From: Patescibacteria group bacterium
Lineage (GTDB): Bacteria > Patescibacteriota > Gracilibacteria > UBA1369 > 2-02-FULL-48-14
Assembly (NCBI GenBank): GCA_018816805.1
Contig: JAHIVE010000005.1
Coordinates: 39,102 to 103,101, forward strand
Direction of reading: 5' to 3'
DNA length: 64,000 nucleotides
This document shows positions 13,715 through 45,863 of this stretch, in pieces. Position numbers and translations under genes: made by a program. Below the pieces are notes generated by a model. It searched no databases. It was given only the letters and a program-made list of their open reading frames with translations, and was not told the DNA's origin. Every line of letters begins with the position of its first letter. The first letter of the stretch is position 1.

Positions 13715-13728
13715 AACACATCCATTAC

Positions 13729-14352
13729 ATGAGTATGAAACAAAAAAATGCGGTAATTATTTATCAATCCAAAAAAGGTGATCTTCGCCTAAAAGGCGAC
13801 CAACAAAAAGAAACTATTTGGGCATCACAAGCACAAATAGTTGAGATTTTTGAAGTTGATCAATCTGTGGTTTCTCGCCATATTCACAATATTTTCAAAG
13901 ACAAAGAAGTAAACAAAAAAAGCAATATGCACTCTATGCATATTGCAAATTCTGACAAACCTGTAAATTTCTATTCTTTAGACGTAATTTTAGCGGTTGG
14001 CTATCGTACAAATTCGTCCAAAGCGATAGCATTCCGCGCCTGGGCTACAAAAACACTTCGTCAGCACATGACACAAGGCTACACACTAAACAAAAAAAGA
14101 GTTAGCCAGAATCTTAATCAATTTCTAAAAGCCGTCTCTGAAGTAAAAGCACTAATACCGGCAGAATCAGGAACTGATATGAGAGAAGTACTTAACTTAA
14201 TTTCTACCTTTGCAAACACCTGGTTCTCTCTTGAAGCATATGACTCGAACAAATTTCCGGAGAGAGGACTGACAAAGAAAGAAGTTCAATTTACAACTGA
14301 AGATCTAAAGGAGGCAATTAATACTCTTCGAAAACAACTTATCAATAAATAA
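13729..14352 (+). CDS. RhuM family (virulence-island associated, putative DNA-binding) protein, short form
   Basis: The family-typical core VIIYQSKKGDLRLKGD..ETIWASQAQIVEIF......SRHIHNIF...E.........YSLDVILAVGYRTNSSKAIAFRAWATKTLRQHMTQGYTLN is present. The track start at 13681 lies inside the tRNA, so ATG 13729 is preferred. The stop TAA at 14350-14352 abuts tRNA-Ala. Confidence 0.8.
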   Translation: MSMKQKNAVIIYQSKKGDLRLKGDQQKETIWASQAQIVEIFEVDQSVVSRHIHNIFKDKEVNKKSNMHSMHIANSDKPVNFYSLDVILAVGYRTNSSKAIAFRAWATKTLRQHMTQGYTLNKKRVSQNLNQFLKAVSEVKALIPAESGTDMREVLNLISTFANTWFSLEAYDSNKFPERGLTKKEVQFTTEDLKEAINTLRKQLINK

Positions 14353-17816: not shown

Positions 17817-18098
17817 ATGCCTAAAAGCATCCCTTTAGTAGTAATTACGGCATTGATTACAGCTGCCGGAATATACGCAATTACGCGTATTAGTTTGGTA
17901 GGTACTGTTCACAATCAAATCGCACAGATTGAAAGCCTAACTACTCAAAACCAAGAACTCCAAACAGAAGTCACCAGGCTAACTGAAGAGATCACCAGGC
18001 GTGACGCCACTCCTTGTGTAAATCCAAACCCGCCGGATGTGGCAGATGCAACAGACGAAACTGAGTCTACAACGGATTCAACTACCCCCGTAGAGTAG
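17817..18098 (+). CDS. hypothetical small membrane-anchored coiled-coil protein
   Basis: 93-aa ORF with an N-terminal TM segment and a heptad-like stretch. Its 3' end overlaps the convergent purD by 17 nt. Confidence 0.4.
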   Translation: MPKSIPLVVITALITAAGIYAITRISLVGTVHNQIAQIESLTTQNQELQTEVTRLTEEITRRDATPCVNPNPPDVADATDETESTTDSTTPVE

Positions 18099-19395
18099 TC
18101 ATGTGATCAATTCGCTTTTGAATTAAAGCAGCCGTTCCAATATCTCTCCTGTAAAACACAGGTCCCTTCACACAATCCAAGGCACTTTGTGCCTTTCTTT
18201 CCGCTTCCTCCAAGGAATCCGCAATCCCAACAAACGCTATCGCCCTTGAACTTGATAAATAAAGTCCGTCTTCCTTCTTGTCAACAGAACCAAAATACAT
18301 TTTCACACCTTCCGGCACCATACCAATCTCAATTTTATCTCCTTTTTTTGGATTCACAGGATAGCCCTCCGGCACAACATACTTTAAAACAGTCGCCTTA
18401 TTCTCAAATTCCAGTTCCAGTTTCTCCAAAGTCCCCTCAATTATCGCTTCGCAAACCTGAGCAAAATCCGACTTCAAAAGCGGCAAAACATTCATTGCCT
18501 CCGGATCCCCAAACCTGGCATTATATTCAATCAACCTCACACCATCCTTTACGGCAATAAATCCTCCATACATCACGCCCGTAAAATATTTCCCGGTCTC
18601 CTCCTTTAGCGCAGCAGCCACGCGAACAGTAATTTCATGCGCCTCCTTCAAATCACTTTCTCGCAGGAACGGCAGCGAATGATTCACATCACTATATGTT
18701 CCCATCCCGCCTGTATTAGGCCCTGTGTCACCCTCATACGCTCTTTTATGATCCTGCACAGCCGGCATATCTCGCAGTGTTTTGCCATCCGTAAGACTCA
18801 TAAGCGAAAACTCTTCACCCACAAATTTTTCCTCAATCACCACACGACCAGCATCCAAAATACATTCCTCAGCATATTGAACGCCTTCTTCAATAGATTC
18901 CAAATGTACCCCGGAAACTTTCACCCCCTTACCACCAGTTAATCCATCCGCTTTCACCACATAATTCCCGCCAAGTTCTTCAATAAAATCTCTCATGCCA
19001 TCAATCTCTTCAAAGACCCTAAATTCCGGATTCCCAGGAATATTATATTTTTTCATTAAATCACGCGTAAAAGACTTGGAACTTTCCAGTTGCGCAAGCA
19101 TCATTGTAGGCGCAACGCTTTTCACACCAATCTCTAAGAGTTTATCAGCCGCTCCATCCGCAATTGGATTATCCGGCCCCACAAATGCAAAATCAGGTTT
19201 AACTTTCTCTGCAAACGAAATCATTGCATCAAAATCACTCAACGAACCAACTTCATATTCCTCAGAAAGCTCAATAATCCCCGGATTTTTGCTGCTGGCA
19301 TACGTATATAACAAAACTTCCTGTGGACTCCTTTTTAGTGTCTCGGCAATGACATGTTCTCTGGCGCCATTGCCCACAAGCAGAATACGTTTCAT
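18082..19395 (-). CDS. purD: phosphoribosylamine-glycine ligase
   Basis: MKRILLVGNGAREHVIAE N-terminus with an ATP-grasp core; full length at 437 aa. Confidence 0.92.
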   Translation of the reverse strand: MKRILLVGNGAREHVIAETLKRSPQEVLLYTYASSKNPGIIELSEEYEVGSLSDFDAMISFAEKVKPDFAFVGPDNPIADGAADKLLEIGVKSVAPTMMLAQLESSKSFTRDLMKKYNIPGNPEFRVFEEIDGMRDFIEELGGNYVVKADGLTGGKGVKVSGVHLESIEEGVQYAEECILDAGRVVIEEKFVGEEFSLMSLTDGKTLRDMPAVQDHKRAYEGDTGPNTGGMGTYSDVNHSLPFLRESDLKEAHEITVRVAAALKEETGKYFTGVMYGGFIAVKDGVRLIEYNARFGDPEAMNVLPLLKSDFAQVCEAIIEGTLEKLELEFENKATVLKYVVPEGYPVNPKKGDKIEIGMVPEGVKMYFGSVDKKEDGLYLSSSRAIAFVGIADSLEEAERKAQSALDCVKGPVFYRRDIGTAALIQKRIDHMTTLRG

Positions 19396-19402
19396 GATTT
19401 TT

Positions 19403-20893
19403 TTAAATTAATGGTATTTGATTTAAACTTTCACAACCAGACGGCGCAACCCCACTTCGACTATCCTCAGCAGCCCTCAAAACTTCTTCAGTTACGTCTC
19501 CGGTTGGATATTTTCCATCAAAACATGCCATACAGAATTTCTTAATTTTTGGATTTCCTTCCTGCACCGCAGAAACCAAATCATCCAATTCCTGATAAAA
19601 GAGAGCATCAGCCCCAATTTTCTTCGCAGTTTCCTCAATTGTAAGCTCATTTGCAACAAACTCCTTCCTTGATGGCATATCAATCCCATAAACACATGGG
19701 TGGTGTAGGGGAGGCGCACAAGACGCAAAATACACTTTCTTAGCCCCCATTGCCCTAACCATATCCACAATCTGCCTTGAAGTATTGCCGCGAACAATTG
19801 AATCATCCACCAAAAGCACATTTTTACCCTTAATCTCAAGCTGAATTGGATTCAATTTTTGGCGAATCGACTTATTGCGTTTCTCTTGTCCCGGCATTAT
19901 GAAAGTTCGCCCAACATATCTGTTTTTCACCAATCCTTCTCTATACTTAACACCCAATTTATATGCAAGCGGTACAGCAGCATGCTTTGAAGTTGTCGGT
20001 ACCGGAATAACCACATCAATCTTCAAGTTCGCGGCCTTGATCTGTTTAGCCAATTTTTCACCCATCCTGAGCCTGCTTTTATAAACGGAAATATCATCCA
20101 GCATGGAATCCGGCCGCGCAAAATACACATACTCAAAAATACAAGGTGTAAGCTCCGTTTTCCCCGCACAAATCTTCCTATGCACATTTCCATGCAAATC
20201 TACATAAACCGCCTCGCCGGGCGCCAAATCACCAATAACCTCAAACCCCAAAACATCCAACGCCACAGACTCAGACGCCAAAATGGTATCTGTATATAAA
20301 TCATCCTTCCTTTGCCCAAAAATCAGCGGCCGAATCGCATTCGGATCCCTAAAAGCTAAAAGCCCATGCCCTGCAATCAAAGCAATAACCGCATAAGCAC
20401 CCCGAACCCTCTTAAAAACACCCTCCATCGCATTAAAAATATGCTCAGGTTTCAAGCTAAGCCCATCTTGTTTATCAAGTTCATCCGCAAGAACATTCAA
20501 CAAAACTTCAGAATCGCTTCTGGTATTCAAATGACGCTTATTACTCTTAATAACTTGCTCTCGAAGCTCATCTGTATTAGTTAAAGTTCCATTGTGAATC
20601 AATGCAACACCATAAGGGGCATTCACATAAAATGGCTGTGCCTCAGCTGTATCATACGTACCGGCAGTAGGATACCTAACATGTCCAAGCCCCGTATTCC
20701 CGCAAAGCCGCTTACTTTCTGTTGGTCCAAAAACATCCGCTACAAGTCCGTCTCCCTTCACCAAATGAATCTGCTCACTATCATAAGTAACCATCCCGGC
20801 CGCATCCTGACCCCGATGCTGAAGCATCATCAGTCCGTCATAAAGTTGTAAGAAGACGGGGTCGTTTGAATGAATGCCAATTATTCCACACAT
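19403..20893 (-). CDS. purF: amidophosphoribosyltransferase
   Basis: MCGIIGI Ntn N-terminus, PRTase motif VLLVDDSIVRGNTS, and C-terminal cysteines. Confidence 0.93.
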   Translation of the reverse strand: MCGIIGIHSNDPVFLQLYDGLMMLQHRGQDAAGMVTYDSEQIHLVKGDGLVADVFGPTESKRLCGNTGLGHVRYPTAGTYDTAEAQPFYVNAPYGVALIHNGTLTNTDELREQVIKSNKRHLNTRSDSEVLLNVLADELDKQDGLSLKPEHIFNAMEGVFKRVRGAYAVIALIAGHGLLAFRDPNAIRPLIFGQRKDDLYTDTILASESVALDVLGFEVIGDLAPGEAVYVDLHGNVHRKICAGKTELTPCIFEYVYFARPDSMLDDISVYKSRLRMGEKLAKQIKAANLKIDVVIPVPTTSKHAAVPLAYKLGVKYREGLVKNRYVGRTFIMPGQEKRNKSIRQKLNPIQLEIKGKNVLLVDDSIVRGNTSRQIVDMVRAMGAKKVYFASCAPPLHHPCVYGIDMPSRKEFVANELTIEETAKKIGADALFYQELDDLVSAVQEGNPKIKKFCMACFDGKYPTGDVTEEVLRAAEDSRSGVAPSGCESLNQIPLI

Positions 20894-20951
20894 AGGGGGT
20901 CTTTTTTTGGAGACTAAATACTAACGCGAATACTACTTAACCTTCAAGTGA

Positions 20952-21809
20952 TTATTTTTTTGTTTGCTTCCTCGCCGCAACCGCCACGCTTTCCATTAAA
21001 CAAGCAACCGTCATAGGCCCAACGCCACCAGGCACCGGCGTAATAGCCGCAACTTTATCTTTTACTGTATCAAAATTCACATCTCCACAAAGTTTTCCGT
21101 TTTCAAGCCGATTCATCCCAACGTCAATAATAACAGAACCCTCTTTAACCATATCTTCATTAATCAAATTCGGCACCCCGGCCGCCACAACCAGCAAATC
21201 CGCCCATTTTGTATAAACAGTCAGATTTTTTGTTTTACTGTGACAAACCGCCACAGTCGCACCTCTGTTTAGAAGCATAGAGGCAATCGGTTTCCCAACA
21301 ATATTGCTGCGACCAACAACAACCGCATCCATCCCGCTTACATCCACATTGTAATAATCTAAAATTTTAATAATTCCCTTTGGCGTGCACGGTGCCATAT
21401 CTTCAAATTCCTGGCTAATAAACATTTTCCCCAAATTATAAGCCGTAAATCCGTCCACATCCTTCCGTGGATCAATCGCCTTATTGATAAGTGGCACGGA
21501 AATATGCTTTGGCAAAGGCAACTGAACAATAAAACCATGCACCGACTTGTCCTCATTCAACTCCTCCACAACTTTTATAAGATCTTCCTGACTAATACTT
21601 GCATCAAACGCCCTCTTTTCAAACAAAATGCCAACATTTTTACACGCTTTCTCTTTATGCCCCACATAAACCTGGCTCCCCGGATCTTCACCCACAACTA
21701 CCACAACCAATTTAGGCATAATACCTTCCACTTCAAGTTCAACAACATCCTTTTTTACTTGCTCCAAAACCGACTCTGAAACCTTGAGGCCGTCTAAGAT
21801 TTGAACCAT
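20952..21809 (-). CDS. folD: bifunctional methylenetetrahydrofolate dehydrogenase/methenyl-THF cyclohydrolase
   Basis: VGEDPGSQVYV, VVVGRSNIVGKP and ITPVPGGVGPMTVA. Confidence 0.92.
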   Translation of the reverse strand: MVQILDGLKVSESVLEQVKKDVVELEVEGIMPKLVVVVVGEDPGSQVYVGHKEKACKNVGILFEKRAFDASISQEDLIKVVEELNEDKSVHGFIVQLPLPKHISVPLINKAIDPRKDVDGFTAYNLGKMFISQEFEDMAPCTPKGIIKILDYYNVDVSGMDAVVVGRSNIVGKPIASMLLNRGATVAVCHSKTKNLTVYTKWADLLVVAAGVPNLINEDMVKEGSVIIDVGMNRLENGKLCGDVNFDTVKDKVAAITPVPGGVGPMTVACLMESVAVAARKQTKK

Positions 21810-21842
21810 TTTTCTAAAGTTAGAGCGTCAGAATTTTAGCAG

Positions 21843-22424
21843 CTATAGTCCAAGATGCAAAGCAACAACCTGCCAAATTAATTCGCTCGTCTCCGGCGCC
21901 GTTGGCTGCAGCGGAATTTTTGTCCAATCATATTTTTCCGCCAGCTCCAAATGCACCTGTCGCGATCTCTTCATAATTTCATGATTCGTCTCATGCAAAT
22001 GCCCTTCCTCCATTGACGACTCAATCCTCTCACCATCAATCAAAATTGCCAAATCCTCATCCACCAAATACTTGTTCATCTCCTCCAGCCAATGCGTAGA
22101 CGCCCCCTTCACCGTACCCCAAGCTATTCCCGTTCCAACATAATCTTCCGCCACCACAATTTTTCCTTCTGTTAGCCATCCTTTCAAAGTCGGCTCAAAC
22201 TGATACCTATTTAAAGTAAACCACATCTGCAACTCCTCCTCAGAAATTTTCTGCTCCGTCCCACTCCTCAAAAAATTATTTAAATATTGCCCCGTGGGCT
22301 CTTCATCATAAACCGGATATTTTACATAAACCGCACTGCGCCCAAGAGACCGAAGCCTCTCAACTAGCAGTTTAGCCTGCGTAGTCTTTCCAATATTATT
22401 AATCCCGTACAGCGTAATTAGCAT
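21843..22424 (-). CDS. thymidylate kinase-like P-loop nucleotide kinase
   Basis: The N-terminus ITLYGINNIGKTTQAKLL resembles the dTMP kinase P-loop. The remainder is divergent. Confidence 0.55.
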   Translation of the reverse strand: MLITLYGINNIGKTTQAKLLVERLRSLGRSAVYVKYPVYDEEPTGQYLNNFLRSGTEQKISEEELQMWFTLNRYQFEPTLKGWLTEGKIVVAEDYVGTGIAWGTVKGASTHWLEEMNKYLVDEDLAILIDGERIESSMEEGHLHETNHEIMKRSRQVHLELAEKYDWTKIPLQPTAPETSELIWQVVALHLGL

Positions 22425-24519: not shown

Positions 24520-25182
24520 TTAGGGAAGAATTCCAAATAATTGCTTCATCTTCTCATGATAACCATAATCATACTCAAAAGCATATAGAGTGTCGCTCTC
24601 CTTTACCACAATATGAACAGTTTTAGTTTTAATTTTATGGTTAAAGTAGAATGAAGTATCTCCATAAGTATTTGTTTCATTAACTTCTCCATAATCCAAT
24701 AGTCCCATAGCTCTTTCACGAATCTTCAAATATCCCTGAAATGCACCAATTTCTGTAGGATATTTGATCTCAGAAACAGCCCCAACGTAAGTCTCATCCT
24801 CAAAAATATTAGATTGATAAACATACGCGTCAGTTTGATCTGAAAAATCAATTATTTGAAAAACCGACCCGTTAAACTGAGCCTCTTTCAAAATAGGATT
24901 TGAGAAACCCACCAACTGAAAATTCAACGCGGAAAGTTCCGGCTCAATCACAGAAATAGAACTTAAAGTTACTTCGTCTTCAGAATTCTGTTTTACAGGT
25001 TCAGTAGTTTCCTCGTCAATTTTTGGCTCTGCCAAAAGTGGCTCAGCAGTTGCAACATTAAGATCCTTAGCATTATCAATGCCACTAATATCAGCTTTTA
25101 AATAATTATGAGAAAGAATATCACCTATAAAGAAAAGTAAGGTGAGTGACAACAAGATCGAAAATATTGTGAATCTTTGCAT
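24520..25182 (-). CDS. hypothetical membrane-anchored or secreted protein
   Basis: 220-aa ORF with an N-terminal hydrophobic segment (FTIFSILLSLTLLFFIG) and no motif. Confidence 0.5.
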   Translation of the reverse strand: MQRFTIFSILLSLTLLFFIGDILSHNYLKADISGIDNAKDLNVATAEPLLAEPKIDEETTEPVKQNSEDEVTLSSISVIEPELSALNFQLVGFSNPILKEAQFNGSVFQIIDFSDQTDAYVYQSNIFEDETYVGAVSEIKYPTEIGAFQGYLKIRERAMGLLDYGEVNETNTYGDTSFYFNHKIKTKTVHIVVKESDTLYAFEYDYGYHEKMKQLFGILP

Positions 25183-26429: not shown

Positions 26430-26633
26430 TTAAAAAGTAATTAACGAATAAAGCTCGCTAAGCCCCAAATCAAGAGCCGCAATAAAAGCCGCCATAATTA
26501 TAGAAACAGCTACAACTACACCTGTTAACATCACAGCTTGTTCTTTAGTTGGCCATGTAATCTTCCCAAACTCCTCAAAAGCTCCAACAAAAAAAGCAAC
26601 AATAGGGTTACTTTTGGCTTCCTTTTTACTCAT
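26430..26633 (-). CDS. secE: preprotein translocase subunit SecE
   Basis: 67 aa with KITWPTKEQAV followed by a single TM segment, immediately upstream of nusG. Confidence 0.85.
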   Translation of the reverse strand: MSKKEAKSNPIVAFFVGAFEEFGKITWPTKEQAVMLTGVVVAVSIIMAAFIAALDLGLSELYSLITF

Positions 26634-26815
26634 TTTATTAGGGATTAGTAGTCAATTTTAAAAGGCCTCTTGGGCCATTTGTTCTTACGACATAAATATT
26701 ACGCCCAAAATTTAAAAAAAACAAGTGATTTTTCTCTCAAAATCTGCTATACTTATTAGATAAAAAACAAAAATAAATGAGATTTAAATTCCTAGAAAAC
26801 AAATATAGGACCAAC

Positions 26816-27703
26816 ATGATACTCCTTGCAGTGTGCGCTGCAGCGTTTTTTGCTTCAATTCCACACCTGGCACATGCCGCTTTCCTACCTCTTCCTTCAA
26901 CTGAAGAGCTGGACGTCCCAACTCCCACAGGAGAAACAGCAGCTGAACGTTTTGAAAGCATATTGGGGCCACTTGCAAGGTCAATTAGAATCGTTGTTGG
27001 TGCAATTGCCGGTCTATTAATAGTTGTATCAGGTATAACAATGGTTCTTGGCGGAGAAAGCGAAGAAACAGTAACAAACCAGAAAAAATCAATAATGTAC
27101 GGAGTAATTGGTCTAATTATGATAAGTGTTGCAGGTCCAATTGCAGAAGTTTTTGACTTTAGAGCTGGAAACATAGTTGCAGATGACAAACTAATGCTAG
27201 AGAGAGCTGCACTTTTTAACAGCGCAACACGGCTAATTATTACTTTTTTGAAATATATGCTGGGTTCGTTGGCTGCACTTATGTTTATCCGTGCTGGTGC
27301 AACAATGGTTATGTCAGGCCAAAGCGAAGAGGACATTACTCGAGAAAAAAAGAATCTCATTTATTCGGGTGGAGGATTAATGATGGTCATTTTTTCAGAC
27401 CTTGTTGTCCGCAAAGTACTATTTGCTACAAGCTACAACGAAGACACACAACAAACTGTTGCTGCAGTTAATCAAAACGAATTTGTAACCCAATTGGTTG
27501 CAATTACAAACATTGTGGTCAGCTTTGTAGGACCGGTGATGATGCTTGGATTGGTTATTGGAGCAGTAATGTTTGTAACCGCTCATGGCAACGAAGAACA
27601 GACGGAAAAAGCAAAAAAGATTATAATCAATTCAGTGATTGGTATTGTAATAATATATGGGGCATTCGCTCTTGTTTCAACAGTAATTAACGGAGTCTTC
27701 TAA
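26816..27703 (+). CDS. membrane protein made of three tandem VirB2/TrbC-like (CPR T4SS-pilin-like) hairpin units
   Basis: Signal peptide MILLAVCAAAFFASIPHLAHA, then three units of TM, charged loop, TM. The loops are GITMVLGGESEETVTNQKKSIMYGVIG, GATMVMSGQSEEDITREKKNLIYSGGG and AVMFVTAHGNEEQTEKAKKIIINSVIG. The track ORF starts at 26777; ATG 26816 is preferred. Confidence 0.7.
   Translation: MILLAVCAAAFFASIPHLAHAAFLPLPSTEELDVPTPTGETAAERFESILGPLARSIRIVVGAIAGLLIVVSGITMVLGGESEETVTNQKKSIMYGVIGLIMISVAGPIAEVFDFRAGNIVADDKLMLERAALFNSATRLIITFLKYMLGSLAALMFIRAGATMVMSGQSEEDITREKKNLIYSGGGLMMVIFSDLVVRKVLFATSYNEDTQQTVAAVNQNEFVTQLVAITNIVVSFVGPVMMLGLVIGAVMFVTAHGNEEQTEKAKKIIINSVIGIVIIYGAFALVSTVINGVF
26939..27700 (+). 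repeat. intragenic triplication of the pilin-like hairpin (units about 26939-27157, 27197-27424, 27476-27700)
   Basis: Read from the protein sequence. Repeat similarity is at the protein level, not the nucleotide level. Confidence 0.7.
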
Positions 27704-28668
27704 TGAAAAAATTCTCAATAATTATATGCGCGCTACTGATGCAACTCACTCTAATTTCAACTGTGAGTGCGGCAACAAGTTTTGATTATAAAGATACGCT
27801 CAAGCAATTTTCTGAAGATATTGAAACAATTAGTGAAGATCTATCCGACCAAACAGAAACAGATACGGATGGTGTAATTTCATTGCCCACTTTCCAAGCT
27901 GACGATGAGCAGGAGGGTGCAAGCACAATTGCACTGGCAATTCAAAGATTCATGAATTTTTTCAAATTGCTGGTTGCACCTCTAGCAATTTTGGCAATAG
28001 TGATCGCCGGAGTTAAATTGGTTACAGCCGGACGTGACAGCGAAGAAGCCGCAACAAAAGCAAAAAACTTCATTCGTTATGCCGCAGAAGGCCTGATAAT
28101 CATTATTATTGCTGACCAGATCATTAACGTAATTTTTGGGCCTACCGGAGAAATTTTCAGAGGAGGCCAGGCGGGCGCAGAAGAATATGGAAGAAAAACT
28201 GCACAACTTATGGAAGGAATCTACAGCTTAATTCAAGTAATTATTGGTTCAGTCGCAATTTTCATGATTGTAATAGCTGGTATGCGTTATGTGGCCGGAT
28301 CCGCTTCAGACGAACAAATTGCAACTGCAAAAAAACAAATCACTTGGGCCTTGATTGGACTTTTTGTTGTGGGAGTATCTGAATTTGTTGCAAAAGACAT
28401 TTTATTCCAGCAACAAGGAACAAAAATTGGTTTTGATCAAGCAAAACAACTTTTCGCACAGGTTACAAACTTTGCTGCAGGCACAATCGGCACACTTTCA
28501 TTCGCTTTTATGCTTTATGCAGGTTACCTATACGTGACCGCCCAAGGCGACGAAGACCAAGTTGCCAAAGCAAAAAAGATAATTTTTGGTGCCATAATTG
28601 GCATTTTGTTGGCTGGATCAGCGTACGCAATTACTTCAACCATTGTTCAACTTGATGCTTCAAGGTAA
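27703..28668 (+). CDS. second membrane protein made of three tandem VirB2/TrbC-like pilin hairpin units
   Basis: Signal peptide ...ISTVSA, an acidic linker, then three units with loops GVKLVTAGRDSEEAATKAKNFIRYAAEG, GMRYVAGSASDEQIATAKKQITWALIG and GYLYVTAQGDEDQVAKAKKIIFGAIIG. The start codon overlaps the upstream stop (TAATG). Confidence 0.7.
   Translation: MKKFSIIICALLMQLTLISTVSAATSFDYKDTLKQFSEDIETISEDLSDQTETDTDGVISLPTFQADDEQEGASTIALAIQRFMNFFKLLVAPLAILAIVIAGVKLVTAGRDSEEAATKAKNFIRYAAEGLIIIIIADQIINVIFGPTGEIFRGGQAGAEEYGRKTAQLMEGIYSLIQVIIGSVAIFMIVIAGMRYVAGSASDEQIATAKKQITWALIGLFVVGVSEFVAKDILFQQQGTKIGFDQAKQLFAQVTNFAAGTIGTLSFAFMLYAGYLYVTAQGDEDQVAKAKKIIFGAIIGILLAGSAYAITSTIVQLDASR
27922..28653 (+). 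repeat. intragenic triplication of the pilin-like hairpin (units about 27922-28140, 28192-28407, 28438-28653)
   Basis: Read from the protein sequence. Confidence 0.7.
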
Positions 28669-28702
28669 TTAACTCTATAATGCAGTGGAAAAATCACACG
28701 CC

Positions 28703-31700
28703 ATGAGAATTCGAAAACTTTTTACGGGATTAGCTCTAACGCTTATCGCAACTTCCATGTTTGCGATAGCACCGCTAGCTTCCGCAATTTCTTTTGATGT
28801 TGCGGTAGGTGATCCGGACGCTTCTCAAGGTGACATTACAGCTGCAGAATGTGCTGGCCTTGAAGACAGCTTGGCAGCTTCAATGGGTTGTAATTCGGAA
28901 GATGAAATTATTGACTTCACCACATATAGAGGAGAGCTAGATGCTCCTGACGAAAGCGGGTATGACACAGCACTAACAAAAACAAAGAGCGCCAGAGAAA
29001 TGGTCCAGTTGATTGTGAATTTTGCACTTTCATTCTTAGGATTAGTTTCCACAGTAATAATAATTTATGGAGGTGTAATGTACGTGCTGAGCCGTGGGGA
29101 TGAAGAAATGGCAACAAAGGGAAAGAAAGCAATCTCATACGCGGTTGTTGGTATTGTGATCATTTTGGCTTCTTTTGCAATTGTTAACACTCTTATTGGT
29201 GCAGCCGGGGGAGGAAACGCCGGATCAGGGGACGGCATTACCGGCGACACAATTTCCCAGGCAGGCGCTGGCTTTGACGTTGAACAAGTTCTGGATGAAC
29301 TAACCTCAATTTCTGAAGACTATGTTTACGCCTACGACACACTCATTTTTGTAAATCAAGAAGTCGAATACCTAAAATCGATTGAAATGCCACTGATTGT
29401 GGATGTAGTTGAGACGGATGTGAGCATTGGAGGAATATCAGAGTGGATCACACATCTTGGCACTGACCAAGATTTATCTGACCAATACCAACTCATTGAT
29501 GAAAACGACGTGGATGAATATATAAGTGATCTAAGGCAAGGTCTCCAAAAAATTCAAAGAGAAGTAGATTCACTAAGTGATACCTACGAGAAAGTCCAAG
29601 AACTCTACAACTATCTTAGGAGCGGCGGCTCACAAGCAAACACAACGCTAAATGAGATAGCTGAGCTACTAATACCAATGGCAAATGCATATGAAGGTAC
29701 GGATGGCTGCAGTTCAAGATCCTATTCCCACAATCCGGTATCTTTAAGTGAAGGATTCGGTATCAACTCTACTCAAACCAAAGTCAGCGAAATTGACGAC
29801 AACATCTGTCCCGCACTGGATGACATTCAAGCCGCCGCAGAATCAGACTATGTAGAGGCAGTAGATGAACTTATTAAACGAACAGACGACTTAGCAGCTC
29901 TTTTTGACACCGGTGGCCAGGAAGGCTCAACACTAAATTTGATACGCAAACGTTTCGAGCTTATCGACACGCAACTTGAAACAGCAAAGGATCGCATTAC
30001 AAACCAAACAAAAAGAGATGTAATTGGTGCAATAAATGACGCTTACGTCTTGGTTCAAAACGTAAAATTTGTTAACGCAATAATCAATACAAGTGGCACC
30101 CGCGGGAACGCACCATATATTGTTCGATTCGACGCACTTGGCTCAACTGACCCAAGCGGAAGAACAATTGATGACACAAAAATTCAATGGGATCTAACAG
30201 GAAATGGGCAATTCAATGACGCAACAGGCGCGTCCGTAAGCTGGGAATATTCTAAAGCCGGTACTTACCAGGTCGCCGTTCGCATATTTAGCACACAGGA
30301 TGACATAGCCGCAGGTATTGGAAGAATTACAATAATTGTTGAACCACGCTCATCAGCTATAGTTGTTTCAGCAGAAGCAGGGGGTGAAACAACCCAAATA
30401 GCAGATTTCAGAGAATTTCCATACATTGATAAAGACTCGTACAAGGTTACCTTAAACGAAGCACAATCCGGAATAACATTTGACGCCTCAGCATCTGAAG
30501 GGGCTAACAAAGAAAACATTGAGCAATGGGAATGGAATTTTGGTGACGGAGCAACAATTTCAGGCGGATCTGAAGTCTCATCCGTTACACACGCATACGG
30601 TGAAGCTGGCCAATATAAAGTTGAACTAACCGTCACTGACGCAGTTAGAATCCAGGACAGGCACGTTTTTGTAGTCTATGTAGATTCACCAGCCGCAAGA
30701 ATTGAAGCAACTCCGTCAACAGGCAAAATTGGAACAAAATTCAAACTTAGCGCAGGAGGCTCCACAACGGATGCGGGCACAATAGTTAGTTATCAATGGT
30801 CTGTGACCCCGGTTGGAAGTGATTCTTTTTCATCACAAACCGGCAGTAATGTTGAAGTCGAATTTGACTCGCCGGGAGTCTACACAGTTACTTTGTTGGT
30901 AGCTGATTCAAGTGGAAAAACAGACGACGCATCCCTTGACATATTAGTTGAATCTCAAACACCGGATGCAAAATTCACATATTCGGTCCCAAACGCAACT
31001 GAACCGGGCACATACCATTTTGACGCTTCTGACAGCTACGACCCTGATCCAAATGATGAGATCATATACAACTGGGATTTTGGCGGAGATGAAGGCGCAG
31101 ACTTTGAAATCTTGGACGACAACAATTTTGGTGAAGATATGACTGTTCGTTTCTTAAGAACAGGAAAATATGAAGTATCTTTAACAGTTTGTGACCAACA
31201 TCAAGAAGAATTACAAAAATGTGAAGATGCAGTTGCAGAAATCAATGTGTCCTCTGTATTAGATGTTGAACTCACAATTCAAGCAGGTGTAACAAGACGT
31301 TTGGATGAAAGCGGCGAAGAAAGCGTTAATTTTGAAGCATACAGTAGATCCGCAAACGCATTTGAAATTGACTACGGAGATGGCGAATCTGAATACACAG
31401 ACTTAATCACAAGCGGATTCGCAAATTTCACTCACGCATATACAAGAGCAGGAGTGTTTAATGTTACATTGACAGTTTATGACGAAGGGGAGGGACGCAA
31501 CTCAATAACAAGAAGAGTTTATATTGCATCCGGCGAAAACCCAATTGCAGTAATAAGTGTAGCGGCAGATGGTGAAGATATTGGCTTTGGTGACGAACTT
31601 TCAGGGAACGTACAAACACGTTTCACTTTTGACGCATCAGACTCAATAAATACTGACGGAACCACCAACAACCTCTCGTATACCTGGAATTTTGGAGATG

Positions 31701-33499
31701 GCACAACAGCCTCTCAGAAGAGCACCACAAAAACATTCGAAGAATTAACAAATTATACAGTAACCCTAACCGTTAAGGACAAAGATGACCCAAGTCTTTC
31801 AGACCAAAGCACAGTCTATATTCGCATTCAAGGAATTGACCCTGAAATAAAGGGGATCACAATAACACCTGCCTCAGCCACACTTGAAACGCCACTCAAA
31901 GTAAACGTTAGCGTTAATGCTTCAGACAAAGATGGCCGAATAAATTTTGTAAAAGGTTGGTATTATGACGTGAACGACTCTGCAACCGCCCTTGGAACTG
32001 TAATTTCAGAATCCACAAATTTCTCCCTCACAATCAACACAAAAGGTGAGCAAGACGAACAAGTCACTTACGGTTTTGCCGCTGAAGTCACAGACAATGA
32101 CAACAGAACCGTAAATTCATTCGAAGAACTCCAAGAGTCGGAAATCCCAAAACTCACAGTCACAAACGGACCAAATGACACGCCGGTCGCAAACTTTTCA
32201 GTGGATAGAACTTCATTTTTGGTAGGGGAAGAAGTTGTGTTTTCATCAACCTCATACGACCCGGATGGCGAAATTGTTGAATATGTGTGGGACGTTGAAG
32301 GTGACGGTTTCTTTAATAACGAACCTCAAGAAACACCCTCTTTTACTTATATATATCATGACGTTCACACGAGCGGCGTAAAAGTTAAATTAAAGGTAAC
32401 AGACAATGCCGGCGCAACAGCAACTTCAAAAGAACTCACTTTATATGTGGATACTTTGGCGTCACCTCCGGATGCAGCGTTCCTAGCTGACGTAAATGGC
32501 CTAAATGTAACTTTCCACGACAACTCTACATTCGACACAGCAAACCAAGCTGACTTCAAAGGAATATCTTGGGATTTTGACACAAGCGTGGACAGCAACG
32601 GAAATGGAGTAACAGATGATGATAAAGATTCTCTAGATAGAAATCCCAGCCACACTTATGACGAACTGGGCACGTACCGTGTAAGCATGACAGTAACAGA
32701 TACCTTCGGTAAGAGTGACTCAGTCACAAGAGAAGTATTGGTTGCTAACGCAGCTGACCCGGTTGCAGCTTTCACATTTAGCCAAACAGACGACTTCTCA
32801 ATTGCTTTCCAAAACAATTCCACAACTGACGAAGATGCAGGCGCGCTTGTAAGAAGCTTTGAATGGGATTTTGACACAAATTACGACTCAGATGGTGACG
32901 GAAACAACGCTAATGACGTGGATAGCATAATCAAAAATCCTGACTTCAATTATGACGACTTTGGAACATATTCGGTTAAATTAACCGTAACAGACGACTT
33001 TGGCAAAAAGGATTCTGTTACAAATAATGTAGAGGTGTCTTCTCCAATCCAACCCGTAACAGCACTACTTGCAACTGTCCCACAAACAAATGCAAACAAA
33101 CAGATAATTATGAGCGGAACCTCAGGTGACATTACAATATTCTACAATGCGGAAGGAGGTAGTGGAAATTTCACATATAGAATTGATAAAAATATCTTTT
33201 TTGACACGTCAGGGGACGGCATAAAAGATAATGACATTGATTACTCATCACGAACATCAGGCAGTTGGAGAACAAATTTTGATAAATCTTGGGGACAAAT
33301 TGTAATTAAACTCACAGTTATTGATAACACGACCGGTGACAGCTCGTTCTCAACAGCGCAAGTAATTTTTCAAGGCAGTCTAGCGGGAGCAAATCTCTTT
33401 AACGCTACACCTTCGGAAATGCTATTTTTAATAATCAGTGCACTCTTAGTAGCAATTGTAGGAGTGTCATTAGTATTTAGTTTTAAACCCGTAAAATAA
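28703..33499 (+). CDS. giant surface protein: signal peptide, one pilin-like hairpin, ~300-aa helical region, about ten PKD/Ig-like domains, C-terminal TM anchor
   Basis: The hairpin is VSTVIIIYGGVMYVLSRGDEEMATKGKKAISYAVVGIVIILASFAIV (nt about 28991-29200). PKD signatures recur (WNFGDG, WDFGGDEG, YGDGESEY, WDVEGDG, WDFDT..D..G.G). The C-terminus is LFLIISALLVAIVGVSLVF. The track start at 28685 is GTG; ATG 28703 is preferred. Confidence 0.8.
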   Translation: MRIRKLFTGLALTLIATSMFAIAPLASAISFDVAVGDPDASQGDITAAECAGLEDSLAASMGCNSEDEIIDFTTYRGELDAPDESGYDTALTKTKSAREMVQLIVNFALSFLGLVSTVIIIYGGVMYVLSRGDEEMATKGKKAISYAVVGIVIILASFAIVNTLIGAAGGGNAGSGDGITGDTISQAGAGFDVEQVLDELTSISEDYVYAYDTLIFVNQEVEYLKSIEMPLIVDVVETDVSIGGISEWITHLGTDQDLSDQYQLIDENDVDEYISDLRQGLQKIQREVDSLSDTYEKVQELYNYLRSGGSQANTTLNEIAELLIPMANAYEGTDGCSSRSYSHNPVSLSEGFGINSTQTKVSEIDDNICPALDDIQAAAESDYVEAVDELIKRTDDLAALFDTGGQEGSTLNLIRKRFELIDTQLETAKDRITNQTKRDVIGAINDAYVLVQNVKFVNAIINTSGTRGNAPYIVRFDALGSTDPSGRTIDDTKIQWDLTGNGQFNDATGASVSWEYSKAGTYQVAVRIFSTQDDIAAGIGRITIIVEPRSSAIVVSAEAGGETTQIADFREFPYIDKDSYKVTLNEAQSGITFDASASEGANKENIEQWEWNFGDGATISGGSEVSSVTHAYGEAGQYKVELTVTDAVRIQDRHVFVVYVDSPAARIEATPSTGKIGTKFKLSAGGSTTDAGTIVSYQWSVTPVGSDSFSSQTGSNVEVEFDSPGVYTVTLLVADSSGKTDDASLDILVESQTPDAKFTYSVPNATEPGTYHFDASDSYDPDPNDEIIYNWDFGGDEGADFEILDDNNFGEDMTVRFLRTGKYEVSLTVCDQHQEELQKCEDAVAEINVSSVLDVELTIQAGVTRRLDESGEESVNFEAYSRSANAFEIDYGDGESEYTDLITSGFANFTHAYTRAGVFNVTLTVYDEGEGRNSITRRVYIASGENPIAVISVAADGEDIGFGDELSGNVQTRFTFDASDSINTDGTTNNLSYTWNFGDGTTASQKSTTKTFEELTNYTVTLTVKDKDDPSLSDQSTVYIRIQGIDPEIKGITITPASATLETPLKVNVSVNASDKDGRINFVKGWYYDVNDSATALGTVISESTNFSLTINTKGEQDEQVTYGFAAEVTDNDNRTVNSFEELQESEIPKLTVTNGPNDTPVANFSVDRTSFLVGEEVVFSSTSYDPDGEIVEYVWDVEGDGFFNNEPQETPSFTYIYHDVHTSGVKVKLKVTDNAGATATSKELTLYVDTLASPPDAAFLADVNGLNVTFHDNSTFDTANQADFKGISWDFDTSVDSNGNGVTDDDKDSLDRNPSHTYDELGTYRVSMTVTDTFGKSDSVTREVLVANAADPVAAFTFSQTDDFSIAFQNNSTTDEDAGALVRSFEWDFDTNYDSDGDGNNANDVDSIIKNPDFNYDDFGTYSVKLTVTDDFGKKDSVTNNVEVSSPIQPVTALLATVPQTNANKQIIMSGTSGDITIFYNAEGGSGNFTYRIDKNIFFDTSGDGIKDNDIDYSSRTSGSWRTNFDKSWGQIVIKLTVIDNTTGDSSFSTAQVIFQGSLAGANLFNATPSEMLFLIISALLVAIVGVSLVFSFKPVK
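30077..33050 (+). repeat. tandem PKD-like domain array (approximate bounds)
   Basis: W-x-F/W-G-D-G type motifs recur roughly every 85-100 aa, each followed by a ...Y.V.LTVTD... strand. Confidence 0.7.
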
Positions 33500-33501
33500 T
33501 T

Positions 33502-35658
33502 ATGGAAGACACCACACCCCAGCCGCAAAATCCAAATTCGGAAGCACATAATCCGGAACAACAAGCAACGCCAAGCCAACCGCAAACCGAGCAAACTCCG
33601 CCACCTGTGCCAACACCCGGCACGGTCACTGAGCAAACTCCGCAGGTGCCACAACAAGATAAAAACGCAAAAAAACCAGTAAAAAAAGGCTCTGCTTTCA
33701 AGAGATTATTACTCATGCTTGGACTGGTATTCCTTCTTTTATTTGTTTTTGAATTCGTTTGGGCCTCAACCTTAGCAAAAGGCAGCGCATTAGATAAACT
33801 AATACTAACGGTTACAAATATTCAATGCGGCATTTTAGTTGGAGCTTCACTTCTGTACGCGCTCTTTGGTTTATTAAAATCATTGCTTGCAAAAAAAGAT
33901 CCATTAAAAAAGAAAAAAGCTACAAAAACAGCACTCGTAGGCGGAGTTTTCTTCCTATTATCAGCACTTCTTTGGCTTTTTGCAGTCATTTATCTTCCAC
34001 CACGCCTCACGCCGGAACAACAATATGTTTCATACATATTAACTGATCCAGCAGTGACTCTTGGCTTAACAGCACCAATTGAAGTTGAATTTGATGCAAG
34101 CCAAATACCGGTTGATACAAACGCATTTAGAGTTCTCTCATACACCTGGAATTTTGGAGACGGAGGTACTGCAAACGGCCCAACCGTTTCACATAGATTC
34201 ATCCAAAAACCACCAAATGGAACCTACAACGTAGTTCTAAAAGTATCCTTTATGGATCTGAAAACAGGGGAACAATTATCTGAAGAGTTTACTACAGTAG
34301 TAGGTATTGAAAATGAAGAAGTCGCTGCAATTTTCACCGCAACCCCTTCCAGCGGGAACGTGCCCTTGGATGTTGAATTCAACGCATCCTCATCATACGA
34401 CCCGGACGGAGAAATAGTTGCATATGACTGGGATTTTGATGGCGATGGCAGCTATGACGACGCTTCCGGAGTAATTGTTTCATACACATTCGAACAAGAA
34501 GGCGAATTTACAGTGGGCTTAAGAGTTACGGACAATAACGGACAATATGCAACCACAGCATACAAAATTGAAGCAGGTAGCGTTGGAGGACTAAGAGCAG
34601 TAATTAGCGCACCACTACAAACGGACGAAACATATAAAACAGGAGAAAAATACAAATTCTCAGGCGAACTTTCTCAAATAAGAGAAGGGGAGGTTGTTAA
34701 ATATGTTTGGGACTTTGGTGACAAATCTGACACAATTCAATCAAGAACAGCCACTCATGAATTCACAAAATCTGGCGACTACGAAGTTTCTTTAACAGTT
34801 TTTGACGTTGATGGAAATTCCCACACAGCAACACTGGAAATCAAGGTTGTTGAACAAGGAACACCACCTTCGGCAAAAATAAAAACATCTCCGGCTGCAC
34901 AAAATAATGTAACCTCAGGAGCGGTGCCATTTGAAGTTTCTTTCGACGCCTCAAGTTCAACTGACCCAGAAGATGACATTGTTGAATATGAATGGGATTT
35001 TAACAATGACGGAGTTATTGATGATTCGGGTGACAAAGTAACTTACACATATGAAGAAGTAGGTGTATATGAAGCAAAACTAATTGTCACTGACGCTGCA
35101 GGAAACTCAAACACAATCACAATTGGCATTTCTGTTGAAGAACAAGGAATCGTAGCCAGGTTGAGCGCAAACGTAACCAATGGCGAGGCACCTCTAACAG
35201 TTACATTTGATGCATCATCATCTTCGTATAAAGAAGGAAACATTGTTTCATATGAATACGACTTTGGTGATGGATCTGACGTACACGTTGGCGGCGCAAA
35301 AATTTCATACAAATATATTAATGTAGGTAATTTCACCGTAAAACTCACTGCTATAGGTGAAGATGGAACCAAGGACACAACAACTATGCAAATTGTAGTC
35401 AGACCGGTTGAGATAACTGCTTGTTTCACGGTAAATACAGACAGTGGTAGTGCACCTCTTTTTGTTGCGGTTGATCCAATATGTTCAAAAGGGACAATCA
35501 GATCATATGTATGGGATTTTGATGATGGTGAAATCAGTTTTGACAGAAAACCTGACATCCATACTTATTCCGAACCAGGGACATACACCATCTCATTAGA
35601 AGTTACCTCTGAGGACAGAACAGTAGATGTATTTGAAAAAACCATCACAGTAAGATAA
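33502..35658 (+). CDS. membrane protein: Pro/Gln/Thr-rich N-terminal tail, TM segments with a Lys-rich loop, six PKD-like domains
   Basis: N-terminus PQPQNPNSEAHNPEQQATPSQPQTEQTPPPVPTPG. TM hairpin LVGASLLYALFGLLKSLLAKKDPLKKKKATKTALVGGVFFLLSALLWLF. PKD motifs are YTWNFGDGG, YDWDFDGDG, YVWDFGDKS, YEWDFNNDG, YEYDFGDGS and YVWDFDDGE. It starts 2 nt after the upstream stop codon. Confidence 0.8.
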   Translation: MEDTTPQPQNPNSEAHNPEQQATPSQPQTEQTPPPVPTPGTVTEQTPQVPQQDKNAKKPVKKGSAFKRLLLMLGLVFLLLFVFEFVWASTLAKGSALDKLILTVTNIQCGILVGASLLYALFGLLKSLLAKKDPLKKKKATKTALVGGVFFLLSALLWLFAVIYLPPRLTPEQQYVSYILTDPAVTLGLTAPIEVEFDASQIPVDTNAFRVLSYTWNFGDGGTANGPTVSHRFIQKPPNGTYNVVLKVSFMDLKTGEQLSEEFTTVVGIENEEVAAIFTATPSSGNVPLDVEFNASSSYDPDGEIVAYDWDFDGDGSYDDASGVIVSYTFEQEGEFTVGLRVTDNNGQYATTAYKIEAGSVGGLRAVISAPLQTDETYKTGEKYKFSGELSQIREGEVVKYVWDFGDKSDTIQSRTATHEFTKSGDYEVSLTVFDVDGNSHTATLEIKVVEQGTPPSAKIKTSPAAQNNVTSGAVPFEVSFDASSSTDPEDDIVEYEWDFNNDGVIDDSGDKVTYTYEEVGVYEAKLIVTDAAGNSNTITIGISVEEQGIVARLSANVTNGEAPLTVTFDASSSSYKEGNIVSYEYDFGDGSDVHVGGAKISYKYINVGNFTVKLTAIGEDGTKDTTTMQIVVRPVEITACFTVNTDSGSAPLFVAVDPICSKGTIRSYVWDFDDGEISFDRKPDIHTYSEPGTYTISLEVTSEDRTVDVFEKTITVR
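34054..35655 (+). repeat. tandem PKD-like domain array (six units, approximate bounds)
   Basis: Six W/Y-D/N-F-G/D-D-G motifs at regular spacing. Confidence 0.7.
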
Positions 35659-42365: not shown

Positions 42366-43517
42366 ATGAAAAAATTACTCTCTTTTATACTAGTCGCAAG
42401 CATGACAATTTCCGCATGTAATAGCCAACCAACGCAATTAAATGCCAAAATTCTCAATGAATCTCTCGCCTTGGGAACCGAATACTTATTGAATAGTCAA
42501 AAAGAAGAAGGCAATTTCATTTACGAATATAATTTTAAAACAAAAGAAATCAGCAAAGATGACAATCAAGTGCGCCAAGCTGGTGCTTTATGGGGTATTG
42601 CTCTGATTCACCATTATCAACCAAGTGAAAAAACACTTTCAGCCATTGAAAAAAGCTTAAATTATTTTGAATCAATTAGTAAAACAACTGAAAACGGAGG
42701 AAGATATGTTGTGTACAATGATGGGACTTCAGGGAAAAGCGGAACAATTGCCCTGATCACTCTGGCTCTAGTTGATCTTCTTGAATCAAATTTCAAAATT
42801 AACAACCGTGAAAAATATGAATCTCAGCTGAACGAATATTTAAATTTCCTAATTTCTTTAAGAAAAGATGATGGATTATTTTACTCAAAATTCCGTTACG
42901 AGGACGGGGAAGGGTATTCCACTCCATCACCTTACGTTGACGGCGAAGCACTTCTAGCAATGATAAGAGCGGCAAATTATCTAAAAAGGGAAGACCTTTT
43001 CATCCAAATAGACGAATCAGCAGAGCAAATGTACAAAACAAACGTGCAGGAAGCATTAGAAGAAAATCCGGATAGTGACACAACAAAAGGCTTCTTTCAG
43101 TGGGGAATAATGTCTTTTTATGAGCTCTACAATAAAGATCCTCACAAATATAAAGAATACGCTCAGTACTCAATTGAACTTGCAAATTGGATGATAGACG
43201 TACACAGAACTCTGGAACGCACAAAAAACACTTCCTACGCTTATGAAGGAATTGTATTGGCATATGAATTAGCAAATCGCATGCATGAAAAATCAACGGA
43301 AGAAAAATTTAAATCAGTCATTGACCAGGGGCTTTACAAATTAACTTCATGGCAAGTTGGTTCTCAAATCCAAATAGATTATATTGAAAATCTTAAAGTG
43401 GACGACGTTCTTGCAAAAGGCGGCGTCATGAACGCTGCAGACGAACCACTGCTGCGCATTGACGTCACACAACATCAAATGCACGCAGTGATTCTTGCTT
43501 TAGAATTTGTATACTAA
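42366..43517 (+). CDS. hypothetical lipoprotein (helix-rich; fold unknown)
   Basis: MKKLLSFILVASMTISACN signal/lipobox. ATG 42366 is preferred over the track start at 42300, which overlaps the previous gene. Confidence 0.55.
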   Translation: MKKLLSFILVASMTISACNSQPTQLNAKILNESLALGTEYLLNSQKEEGNFIYEYNFKTKEISKDDNQVRQAGALWGIALIHHYQPSEKTLSAIEKSLNYFESISKTTENGGRYVVYNDGTSGKSGTIALITLALVDLLESNFKINNREKYESQLNEYLNFLISLRKDDGLFYSKFRYEDGEGYSTPSPYVDGEALLAMIRAANYLKREDLFIQIDESAEQMYKTNVQEALEENPDSDTTKGFFQWGIMSFYELYNKDPHKYKEYAQYSIELANWMIDVHRTLERTKNTSYAYEGIVLAYELANRMHEKSTEEKFKSVIDQGLYKLTSWQVGSQIQIDYIENLKVDDVLAKGGVMNAADEPLLRIDVTQHQMHAVILALEFVY

Positions 43518-45763: not shown

Positions 45764-45863
45764 AATTTGATTGATTAAATCATATTATTATAGCACACAT
45801 TGAGCTGCAATGCAACTAACGGCTGTACTTGCGAATCAAATGAAAATCAGTCATTTTCAATCT

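Follow-up and report, generated by a model that had tools for sequence, protein, structure and literature searches.

The 64-kb window analyzed here (64,000 nucleotides of contig JAHIVE010000005.1 from a Patescibacteria group bacterium) contains a cassette of four tightly packed plus-strand genes, referred to as g1 to g4 in the order g1-g2-g3-g4, which is flanked by secE and by a convergent fumC-like gene. On the basis of profile matches, the products of g1, g2, and g3 belong to the VirB2/T4SS_pilin superfamily, the pilins of type IV secretion systems (T4SS), and the products of g3 and g4 carry tandem PKD/PKD_4 domains. The reading favored here, to which we give about an even chance, is that the cassette encodes a hetero-oligomeric membrane base of fixed stoichiometry, built of VirB2-like hairpins, that mounts the PKD arrays at the cell surface. 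It is preferred because of the positional orthology of the hairpins, the equal numbers of hairpins in the partner proteins, the rigid and conserved connectors between them, the existence of fused relatives, and the recurrent linkage with PKD and single-hairpin proteins. The four genes are as follows.

26777-27703, plus strand: g1 (component A), 308 residues
27703-28668, plus strand: g2 (component B), 321 residues
28685-33499, plus strand: g3 (component D), 1604 residues, GTG start
33502-35658, plus strand: g4 (component E), 718 residues

The Pfam model PF18895 (T4SS_pilin, VirB2/TrbC-like), which has a curated gathering cut-off of 26.6 bits, aligns with three stretches of g1 (E-value 1.4e-24, 86.4 bits) and three stretches of g2 (E-value 1.9e-28, 98.8 bits), and thus the three hairpin modules described for each of these proteins in the initial annotation are all accounted for. 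PF04956 (TrbC/VirB2) lies marginally over its cut-off for g1 only (28.8 versus 27.9 bits). The scores with the NCBIfam model NF045849 (Mbov_0395 pilin-like) are 43.8 bits for g1 and 50.8 bits for g2 against a cut-off of 40. With g3, which is discussed below, three of the four products exceed curated pilin-family cut-offs in Pfam, and g1 and g2 do so in NCBIfam as well. The boundaries of the hairpins, delineated in g1 with a custom hidden Markov model (HMM), are given in the following lines.

26951-27163, plus strand: g1, first hairpin, residues 59-129
27215-27427, plus strand: g1, second hairpin, residues 147-217
27482-27691, plus strand: g1, third hairpin, residues 236-305
27937-28143, plus strand: g2, first hairpin, residues 79-147
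28204-28410, plus strand: g2, second hairpin, residues 168-236
28441-28650, plus strand: g2, third hairpin, residues 247-316

The three hairpins of g1 are preceded by a signal-like helix ending in AHA. The g2 protein, a paralogue of g1 with ∼30% sequence identity, begins with a signal peptide (…VSA/A), and its hairpins are joined by short connectors with invariant glycines. It corresponds to NCBI entry MBU0981174.1, which is annotated as 'pilin [Patescibacteria group bacterium]'. Eight aligned modules display a common pattern, namely a glycine-bearing helix, a loop that is first acidic and then reads K.KK, and a second helix. Seven clear hairpin units, with pairwise identities of 13-36%, are distributed over the three consecutive genes g1 to g3, and a scan of the 64-kb window with the hairpin model revealed no further hairpin module outside of the cassette.

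An AlphaFold2 model of g2, calculated from a 60-sequence alignment, has a mean predicted local distance difference test score (pLDDT) of 83.5 and a predicted template modeling score (pTM) of 0.61. In this model, a signal helix is followed by six helices of 31-44 residues (72-108, 114-145, 155-198, 203-234, 244-279, and 284-314), which form the three hairpins. The connectors are predicted to be structured, with pLDDT values of 75-87. Invariant or near-invariant in the family are the loop lysines Lys 121, Lys 210, Lys 289, and Lys 291, the first-helix glycines Gly 103, Gly 193, and Gly 274, and the connector residues Gly 146, Gly 149, Arg 153, Gly 155, Gly 239, and Gly 243. When the g2 model was compared to PDB structures with Foldseek, nothing usable emerged, the best match (E-value 0.4) being to designed helical bundles, and the g2-family profile matched only noise or coiled coils among PDB sequences.

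The architectures of g3 and g4 differ from those of g1 and g2 in that the hairpin portion is followed by an array of PKD domains. Their features are listed here.

28994-29203, plus strand: g3, canonical hairpin, residues 104-173 (PF18895, E-value 2.6e-8, 34.3 bits)
g3 residues ∼180-465, plus strand: helical region, fold not recognized
30083-33055, plus strand: g3, array of ∼10 PKD domains, residues 467-1457 (nine PKD_4/PKD stretches with Pfam, 10 units with a custom HMM)
33386-33496, plus strand: g3, C-terminal end GANLFNATPSEM with transmembrane helix and basic tail, residues 1568-1604, kept in ∼20 orthologues
g4 residues ∼63-94, plus strand: first transmembrane helix
33793-34008, plus strand: g4, two transmembrane helices joined by a KKDPLKKKK loop, residues ∼98-169
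34042-35655, plus strand: g4, six PKD domains, residues 181-718 (PKD_4, E-value 5e-86)

The g3 polypeptide consists of a signal peptide, a Cys-containing ectodomain of ∼70 residues, the hairpin, the helical region, the PKD array (PKD_4, E-value 2.7e-77), and a C-terminal motif followed by a transmembrane helix and a basic tail. Its signal-like N-terminus ends in ASA, and two cysteines are invariant among the orthologues. When aligned with hhalign, the profile of the g3 hairpin matches those of the g2 hairpins with probabilities of 99.4, 97.7, and 96.9, the best being to the third hairpin. The C-terminal consensus in the orthologues of loci L003 to L030 (locus numbers are given with the prefix L throughout) is G(G/S)ANLFNATP(S/K)(E/Q)M, which includes an N-x-T sequon, followed by the transmembrane helix and a basic tail such as YKPLPRR. 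From its sequence, this segment looks like a dedicated sorting or anchoring signal; none of the sorting-signal models in NCBIfam or Pfam matched it, and no sortase gene was found next to it. The protein appears to be anchored at both ends. The AlphaFold2 model of residues 1-520, based on an alignment of five homologues, has a pLDDT of only 34.6. Homologue searches retrieved five proteins for the N-terminus and one for the helical region, and the profile of the N-terminus matched only noise or coiled coils among PDB sequences.

In g4, a Pro/Gln-rich N-terminus, predicted to be cytoplasmic, leads into the three transmembrane helices and the six PKD domains; there is no C-terminal anchor or transmembrane helix. 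The N-terminal transmembrane region is kept in 21 orthologues, including distant ones. The hairpin of g4 matches no Pfam pilin family. Its E-value with NF045849 is 0.008. In hhalign comparisons, the g3 hairpin gives an E-value of 0.002 at a probability of 14%, and the hairpins of g1 and g2 give values of 0.04-0.07. Thus the lysine-loop hairpin of g4 has a pilin-like architecture, and its homology to pilins, as judged from sequence, is not significant and not established. The proposal in the initial annotation that all four products contain the same module holds for g1, g2, and g3, and is unproven for g4. Its PKD counts (∼10 in g3 and six in g4) and its C-terminal transmembrane anchor in g3 are borne out.

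The cassette is a constant feature of its lineage. Approximately 100 close cluster representatives of g2 (50-68% identity, ∼315 residues) are labeled Peregrinibacteria or Peribacteria, and a scan of the GTDB species representatives yielded 22 loci, all from Peribacteria, Peregrinibacteria, or 'Gracilibacteria' metagenome-assembled genomes. In every sufficiently long locus among the 22, the four genes occur in identical order with tight spacing and similar sizes (g1 ∼302-329 residues, g2 309-336, g3 1582-1707, and g4 686-738, with a few longer through upstream extensions), such that the strict synteny looked for in relatives is indeed observed. The block lies between secE-nusG and fumC in nearly all of these loci. 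Both of the complete chromosomes among them, CP064962.1 (1.34 Mb) and OZ246396.1 (1.31 Mb), have it intact, and even a relative at only 36% identity keeps it. Note that in L018 (OZ246396.1, 17-38 kb) and L003 (CP064962.1, 1,297-1,318 of 1,339 kb) only ∼20-40 kb separate the cassette from one end of the record. Were both records to begin at the replication origin, gene dosage at this position would be high, as it reportedly is for the T4SS genes of some Patescibacteria.

Identities to the proteins of the window are 49-66% for g1, 50-61% for g2, 43-53% for g3, and 45-57% for g4, as compared to 58-63% for fumC and 82-88% for NusG. The two PKD giants are not hypervariable, since their identities (43-57%) are close to those of the rest of the cassette and both their lengths and their domain numbers are stable. 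A role as host adhesins is plausible; this degree of conservation, however, is no less compatible with a structural appendage than with an adhesin that evolves rapidly and is specific to a host. No relatives of the cassette were found on plasmid or viral contigs, and a mobile-element origin was accordingly rejected. Given this absence, a base composition matching that of the flanks, and a conserved extended -10 element of its own, the cassette is native and non-mobile; it is core, vertically inherited, and chromosomally fixed genome content of the Peribacteria/Peregrinibacteria.

Variant cassettes occur in at least three other genomic contexts, all among housekeeping genes, in distant metagenomic lineages. 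Their compositions are as follows.

L006, L007, L031, and L033: A with four hairpins and B with four hairpins, then zero to two unknown genes, followed by two proteins with a single hairpin each and a ∼730-residue PKD protein resembling g4
L032: a single protein of 820 residues with eight hairpins, then a 155-residue pilin, a 383-residue protein with a hairpin and one PKD domain ('mini-g3'), and a 718-residue PKD protein
L008 and L034: an A and B pair with 3+3 hairpins, and no PKD genes within 10 kb

In L006 and L007, a full-length g4 orthologue at 29-32% identity closes the variant cassette. In L007, two genes (positions 11823-13850, 409 and 264 residues, no Pfam family) are inserted between B and the single-hairpin pilins, and these may be lineage-specific accessory components.

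As can be seen from these loci, the hairpin numbers of the A and B partners are always equal, either 3+3 or 4+4. Every hairpin position has its orthologous counterpart in the other genomes. Within the 4+4 group, hairpins at corresponding positions in different loci are 56-71% identical, as compared to 15-38% between other A and B positions, with the off-diagonal maximum being A4-B4. Of the hairpins in A and in B, it is the last one that is nearest to those of g3 and of the single-hairpin proteins, and the single hairpins are the most conserved units. The equal numbers and the positional orthology point to a defined hetero-oligomer, and away from subunits that are interchangeable or that vary antigenically. 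A profile search run exhaustively over 1.84 billion representatives yielded 48,721 PF18895-like proteins, 361 of them with E-values of 1e-30 or lower. The top 150 matches include 111 proteins with three hairpins, 14 with four, six with six, and one with eight. One six-hairpin protein, P0212, reads as a fusion of A and B. It is the only one to do so, since most six-hairpin proteins and the eight-hairpin protein of L032 show no clean decomposition into A and B.

The assembly that we propose would begin with the export of g1 and g2 through the Sec machinery and signal peptidase, leaving their N-termini outside. Each would insert three VirB2/TrbC-superfamily hairpins into the cytoplasmic membrane with the lysine loops inside and the glycine-rich, rigid connectors outside. 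The two proteins would then pair to form a pseudo-symmetric hetero-complex in which 3+3 non-equivalent hairpins serve as the membrane base. The single canonical hairpin of g3, which is the most conserved and resembles the last hairpin of g1 and g2, would pack against this base, as would the anchor of g4 with its three transmembrane helices. In this manner two Ig-like stalks, of ∼10 and six PKD domains, respectively, would be mounted on the cell surface, the transmembrane layout being such that every PKD array is predicted to be extracellular. The stalks may be long enough to cross the cell wall and S-layer and to touch a partner cell or substrate, and a function in surface contact is proposed. 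The window also encodes two SLH-domain proteins of ∼515 residues (7800-9341 and 43514-45073, both on the minus strand), one of which has an additional FlgD-Ig-like stretch; these suggest that this small-genome bacterium has a wall-anchored S-layer, which surface appendages must cross.

Several observations weigh against such a membrane base. The hairpin helices, at 31-44 residues, exceed what is needed to span a bilayer, and this is likewise true of the extractable VirB2 pilins. The total number of hairpins differs by lineage, 7-8 versus 10-11, so that there is no single ring size. In L008 and L034, the A and B pairs have no PKD genes nearby, and their function therefore does not strictly need PKD proteins. 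Finally, a VirB4 may well be encoded elsewhere in this genome.

The last point deserves consideration. Neither VirB4, VirD4, nor VirB6 was found among the open reading frames of at least 340 residues in the window, and a search of six-frame reading frames of at least 250 residues for the Walker A pattern retrieved three proteins, namely BipA, a DEAD-box helicase, and 6-phosphogluconate dehydrogenase (the last at an unrelated site), with no T4SS-type ATPase. Extending the search by 10 kb to the left likewise uncovered no T4SS gene. In this genome, VirB4, VirD4, and VirB6 are thus absent over ∼36 kb on the upstream side and ∼28 kb on the downstream side of the cassette, and T4SS families are missing within 10 kb in ∼30 related loci, variant cassettes included. 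These results agree with the initial annotation, which had noted no T4SS ATPase, VirB6, or secretin in the window, and no canonical T4SS or type IV pilus locus within the ∼36 kb upstream and 28 kb downstream explains the genes as its accessory pilins. The proposal that the cassette is self-contained is nevertheless unproven. According to a published survey, VirB4 is present in ∼80% of Patescibacteria assemblies (2,417 of 3,035), and a VirB2-like gene frequently lies at a distance from virB4 (PMC12102498). In the same survey, VirB2-like genes (PF18895/PF04956) were found in 1,948 assemblies and near virB4 in only 1,135, lying away from it in ∼40% of the assemblies having both (PMC12102498). Within the class Gracilibacteria, the T4SS genes are scattered and VirB6 is not detectable (PMC12102498). 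No paper linking Peregrinibacteria and VirB4 was found in the literature.

The hairpins may stay within the membrane, or a VirB4 encoded elsewhere may drive them outward. A tentative reading, and one that we regard as rather unlikely, is an autonomous organelle independent of VirB4, in which the covalently fused, position-specialized hairpins would constitute a pseudo-oligomeric membrane ring or stub bearing PKD stalks for cell-cell contact. It might template a short hairpin stalk or replace the missing VirB6 platform of the Gracilibacteria.

A rival reading, that g1, g2, and g3 contribute ordinary, if fused, subunits of a T4SS pilus, is doubtful but deserves to be taken seriously. A VirB4-type ATPase and partners encoded elsewhere in the genome would extract the hairpins of g1, g2, and g3 together with lipid into a conjugative-type tube, with g3 and g4 as tip or side adhesins. 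Membership in the VirB2/TrbC superfamily and the long, amphipathic, pilin-like helices of the AlphaFold2 model are in its favor, as are the single-hairpin components being the most conserved parts. The genomic distribution of VirB4 and of the scattered T4SS genes cited above also speaks for it (PMC12102498). Against it, T4SS genes are absent from the surveyed vicinity of the cassette in this genome and from the surrounding 10 kb in six or more other contexts. Position-specific hairpins with short, rigid connectors are awkward to accommodate in a helically symmetric homopolymer, a g3 that is seemingly anchored at both ends fits poorly, and no solved pilin was found by sequence or fold search.

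It is very unlikely that g1 and g2 are polyproteins, cut in their external connectors by signal peptidase or another protease into six pilins in an exact 1:1 ratio, in the manner of the six-gene arrays of Saccharibacteria. The topology proposed above would have the second helix of each hairpin run from inside to outside, which is the geometry of a signal peptidase substrate; six hairpins equal the six pilins of the Southlakia array (PMC12857230); and proteins with three, four, six, or eight hairpin units are known. The connectors, however, are short, highly conserved (invariant Gly and Arg), and predicted to be structured (pLDDT 75-87), obvious A-x-A sites are not seen directly after the helices, and the 4+4 lineages break the correspondence with six.

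We consider it very unlikely that the hairpins are no more than generic membrane anchors and that g1 and g2 form some unrelated polytopic protein of the membrane, for example a channel or a factor in envelope biogenesis, merely co-transcribed with PKD proteins. In favor of this reading, the A and B pairs of L008 and L034 lack nearby PKD genes, the g4 anchor is not demonstrably pilin-like, and the cassette is placed among housekeeping genes. Against it, the profile matches reflect sequence and not simply hydrophobicity, with three independent models and conserved loop and glycine motifs; homology between the g3 hairpin and the hairpins of g1 and g2 is clear, with the last repeat being the nearest; and multi-hairpin proteins are found together with PKD and single-hairpin proteins in several unrelated genomic contexts.

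The closest known relatives of the cassette are the VirB2-like arrays of Patescibacteria (Quinonero-Coronel et al. 2025, PMC12102498; Wang et al. 2023, PMC10633639), with which it shares the PF18895/PF04956 family. In both cases, several divergent hairpins lie side by side on the chromosome of a bacterium in the Candidate Phyla Radiation (CPR) with no relaxase context. The arrays contain 2-11 divergent tandem genes (PMC12102498), and the cassette, with seven units in three genes, falls within this range. In Southlakia epibionticum, a cultivated Saccharibacterium, a T4SS locus includes an essential array of six divergent VirB2-like pilins, the pilus having not yet been observed (PMC10633639, PMC12857230). 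Whereas each unit of an array is a separate gene product, those of the cassette are fused 3+3 (elsewhere 4+4 or 8). Unlike the arrays, the cassette encodes an equal-numbered protein pair with position-specific orthology, lies outside of a T4SS cluster neighborhood, and, in the Peribacteria, always continues with PKD-array proteins that are anchored by a hairpin or by transmembrane helices. The papers found on such arrays do not describe any of these traits. In evolutionary terms, the cassette can be read as the Peribacteria form of the Patescibacteria T4SS 'pilin arrays' with the members fused into polypeptides. The 'novel apparatus' of the initial annotation must accordingly be qualified: VirB2-like arrays have already been described (PMC12102498, PMC10633639, PMC12857230), and what is new here is that hairpins are fused within genes, that their numbers are equal in the paired proteins, and that PKD proteins are obligately linked to them. 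No description of fused multi-hairpin pilins or of a pilin-PKD link was found in the literature.

Like the VirB2/TrbC/TraA pilins of Gram-negative T4SS, the cassette proteins combine a cleavable leader with two hydrophobic helices, a short charged loop, and the same predicted topology; leader, helices, and loop are evident from hydropathy and sequence and, for g2, from the AlphaFold2 model. Those pilins have a single hairpin in ∼70-120 residues, whereas the pilin-like proteins of the cassette have one to three hairpins in 308-1604 residues. The former are encoded in T4SS operons with VirB4, VirB6, and other components and form a lipid-bound homopolymeric tube; the cassette has no T4SS neighbors, and no similarity of its hairpins to any solved pilin was detectable by sequence and fold searches. 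The Mbov_0395/MMCAP2_0565 pilin-like proteins of Mycoplasma integrative and conjugative elements (NF045849) are also hairpin proteins of a monoderm with no known pilus, but they are small, single-hairpin, and mobile, in contrast to the multi-hairpin, non-mobile proteins described here. The Pam pilus (bioRxiv 10.64898/2026.03.03.709456) resembles the cassette in being a CPR-specific surface appendage with Ig-like domains, and the PKD domains give rise to weak PamR matches. Its pilins assemble by donor-strand exchange, however, and have no VirB2-like hairpins, and the scores with NF058578 (PamR), 42.7 and 25.6 bits against a cut-off of 300, led to the rejection of Pam pilus membership.

The layout of the locus corresponds to the translationally coupled plus-strand block, with secE divergent and the fumC-like stop 3 nt away, first noted in the initial annotation. 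The g1/g2 junction, read directly from the sequence, is a TAATG overlap at 27701-27705. The gap between g2 and g3 is 16 nt with the GTG start at 28685 and 34 nt with ATG 28703, and that between g3 and g4 is 2 nt (33500-33501). The trinucleotide CTC separates the stop codon of g4 from that of the convergent Lyase_1 (fumC-like) gene. On the opposite side, secE (26430-26633, minus strand) is divergent and 143 nt from g1, with secE-nusG-rplK-rplA running divergently upstream. The start of g1 is not at 26816, as first annotated, but at ATG 26777, 39 nt further upstream, because the resulting length fits both most orthologues (302-322 residues, in open reading frame calls that may include upstream extensions) and the public gene call. 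For g3, GTG 28685 is the most likely start because the N-terminus M.KSHAM.LKR is kept in the orthologues.

An extended -10 promoter-like element is found ∼24 nt upstream of the g1 start codon.

26745-26753, plus strand: TGCTATACT, extended -10 promoter-like element

The consensus block TGCTATAAT is kept in most of the eight aligned orthologous secE-g1 intergenic regions, with its core positions invariant; by itself, a generic promoter scan did not place the TGCTATACT site above chance. Just past secE, there is a conserved GC hairpin (26664-26676) that is terminator-like in appearance. No terminator-like sites on the plus strand were found between the four genes or downstream of g4, the sole such match inside the block being at 26826-26843, within the first 70 nt of g1. 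An Rfam scan matched no family within or upstream of the operon. In the window, DnaA boxes occur at chance counts and the GC skew tracks the gene strand, which gives no origin signature.

Elsewhere in the window, a conserved gene for a protein of 207-241 residues with an N-terminal transmembrane helix and no Pfam family (24520-25182, minus strand; L003 7517-8140; L004 4502-5227) sits between nusG and rplK, breaking the near-universal secE-nusG-rplK-rplA cluster in these Peribacteria. At 1261-4278 (minus strand), and also in L035, a gene for an FtsA/PilM-like ATPase-fold protein of 417 residues is followed by a co-oriented gene for a 584-residue protein with one transmembrane helix, no Pfam family, and no Walker A motif; the two may be an uncharacterized division or pilus-assembly pair. 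The regions 18082-22424, 45810-46994, and 59405-63966 together encode purine (purD, purF, and folD), pyrimidine (DHODH, tmk, and dut), and oxidative pentose-phosphate genes. The biosynthetic gene set is thus richer than in most CPR bacteria and is consistent with published Peribacteria genomes (PMC4736985).

VirB2-like pilin arrays belong to the small number of gene sets whose essentiality for epibiotic life has been shown in a cultivated Patescibacterium. The fused versions provide natural 'Rosetta-stone' constraints, namely a fixed hairpin order, non-equivalent orthologous positions, equal partner numbers, and a tether from hairpin to Ig-like array, which suggest that the arrays encode a defined hetero-oligomer in which the hairpin is a docking module for surface proteins. 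The cassette defines a core-genome marker for the Peribacteria/Peregrinibacteria. Should the VirB4-independent organelle prove true, the essential arrays elsewhere in the Patescibacteria would represent hetero-oligomers whose composition is fixed rather than pools of alternative pilins.

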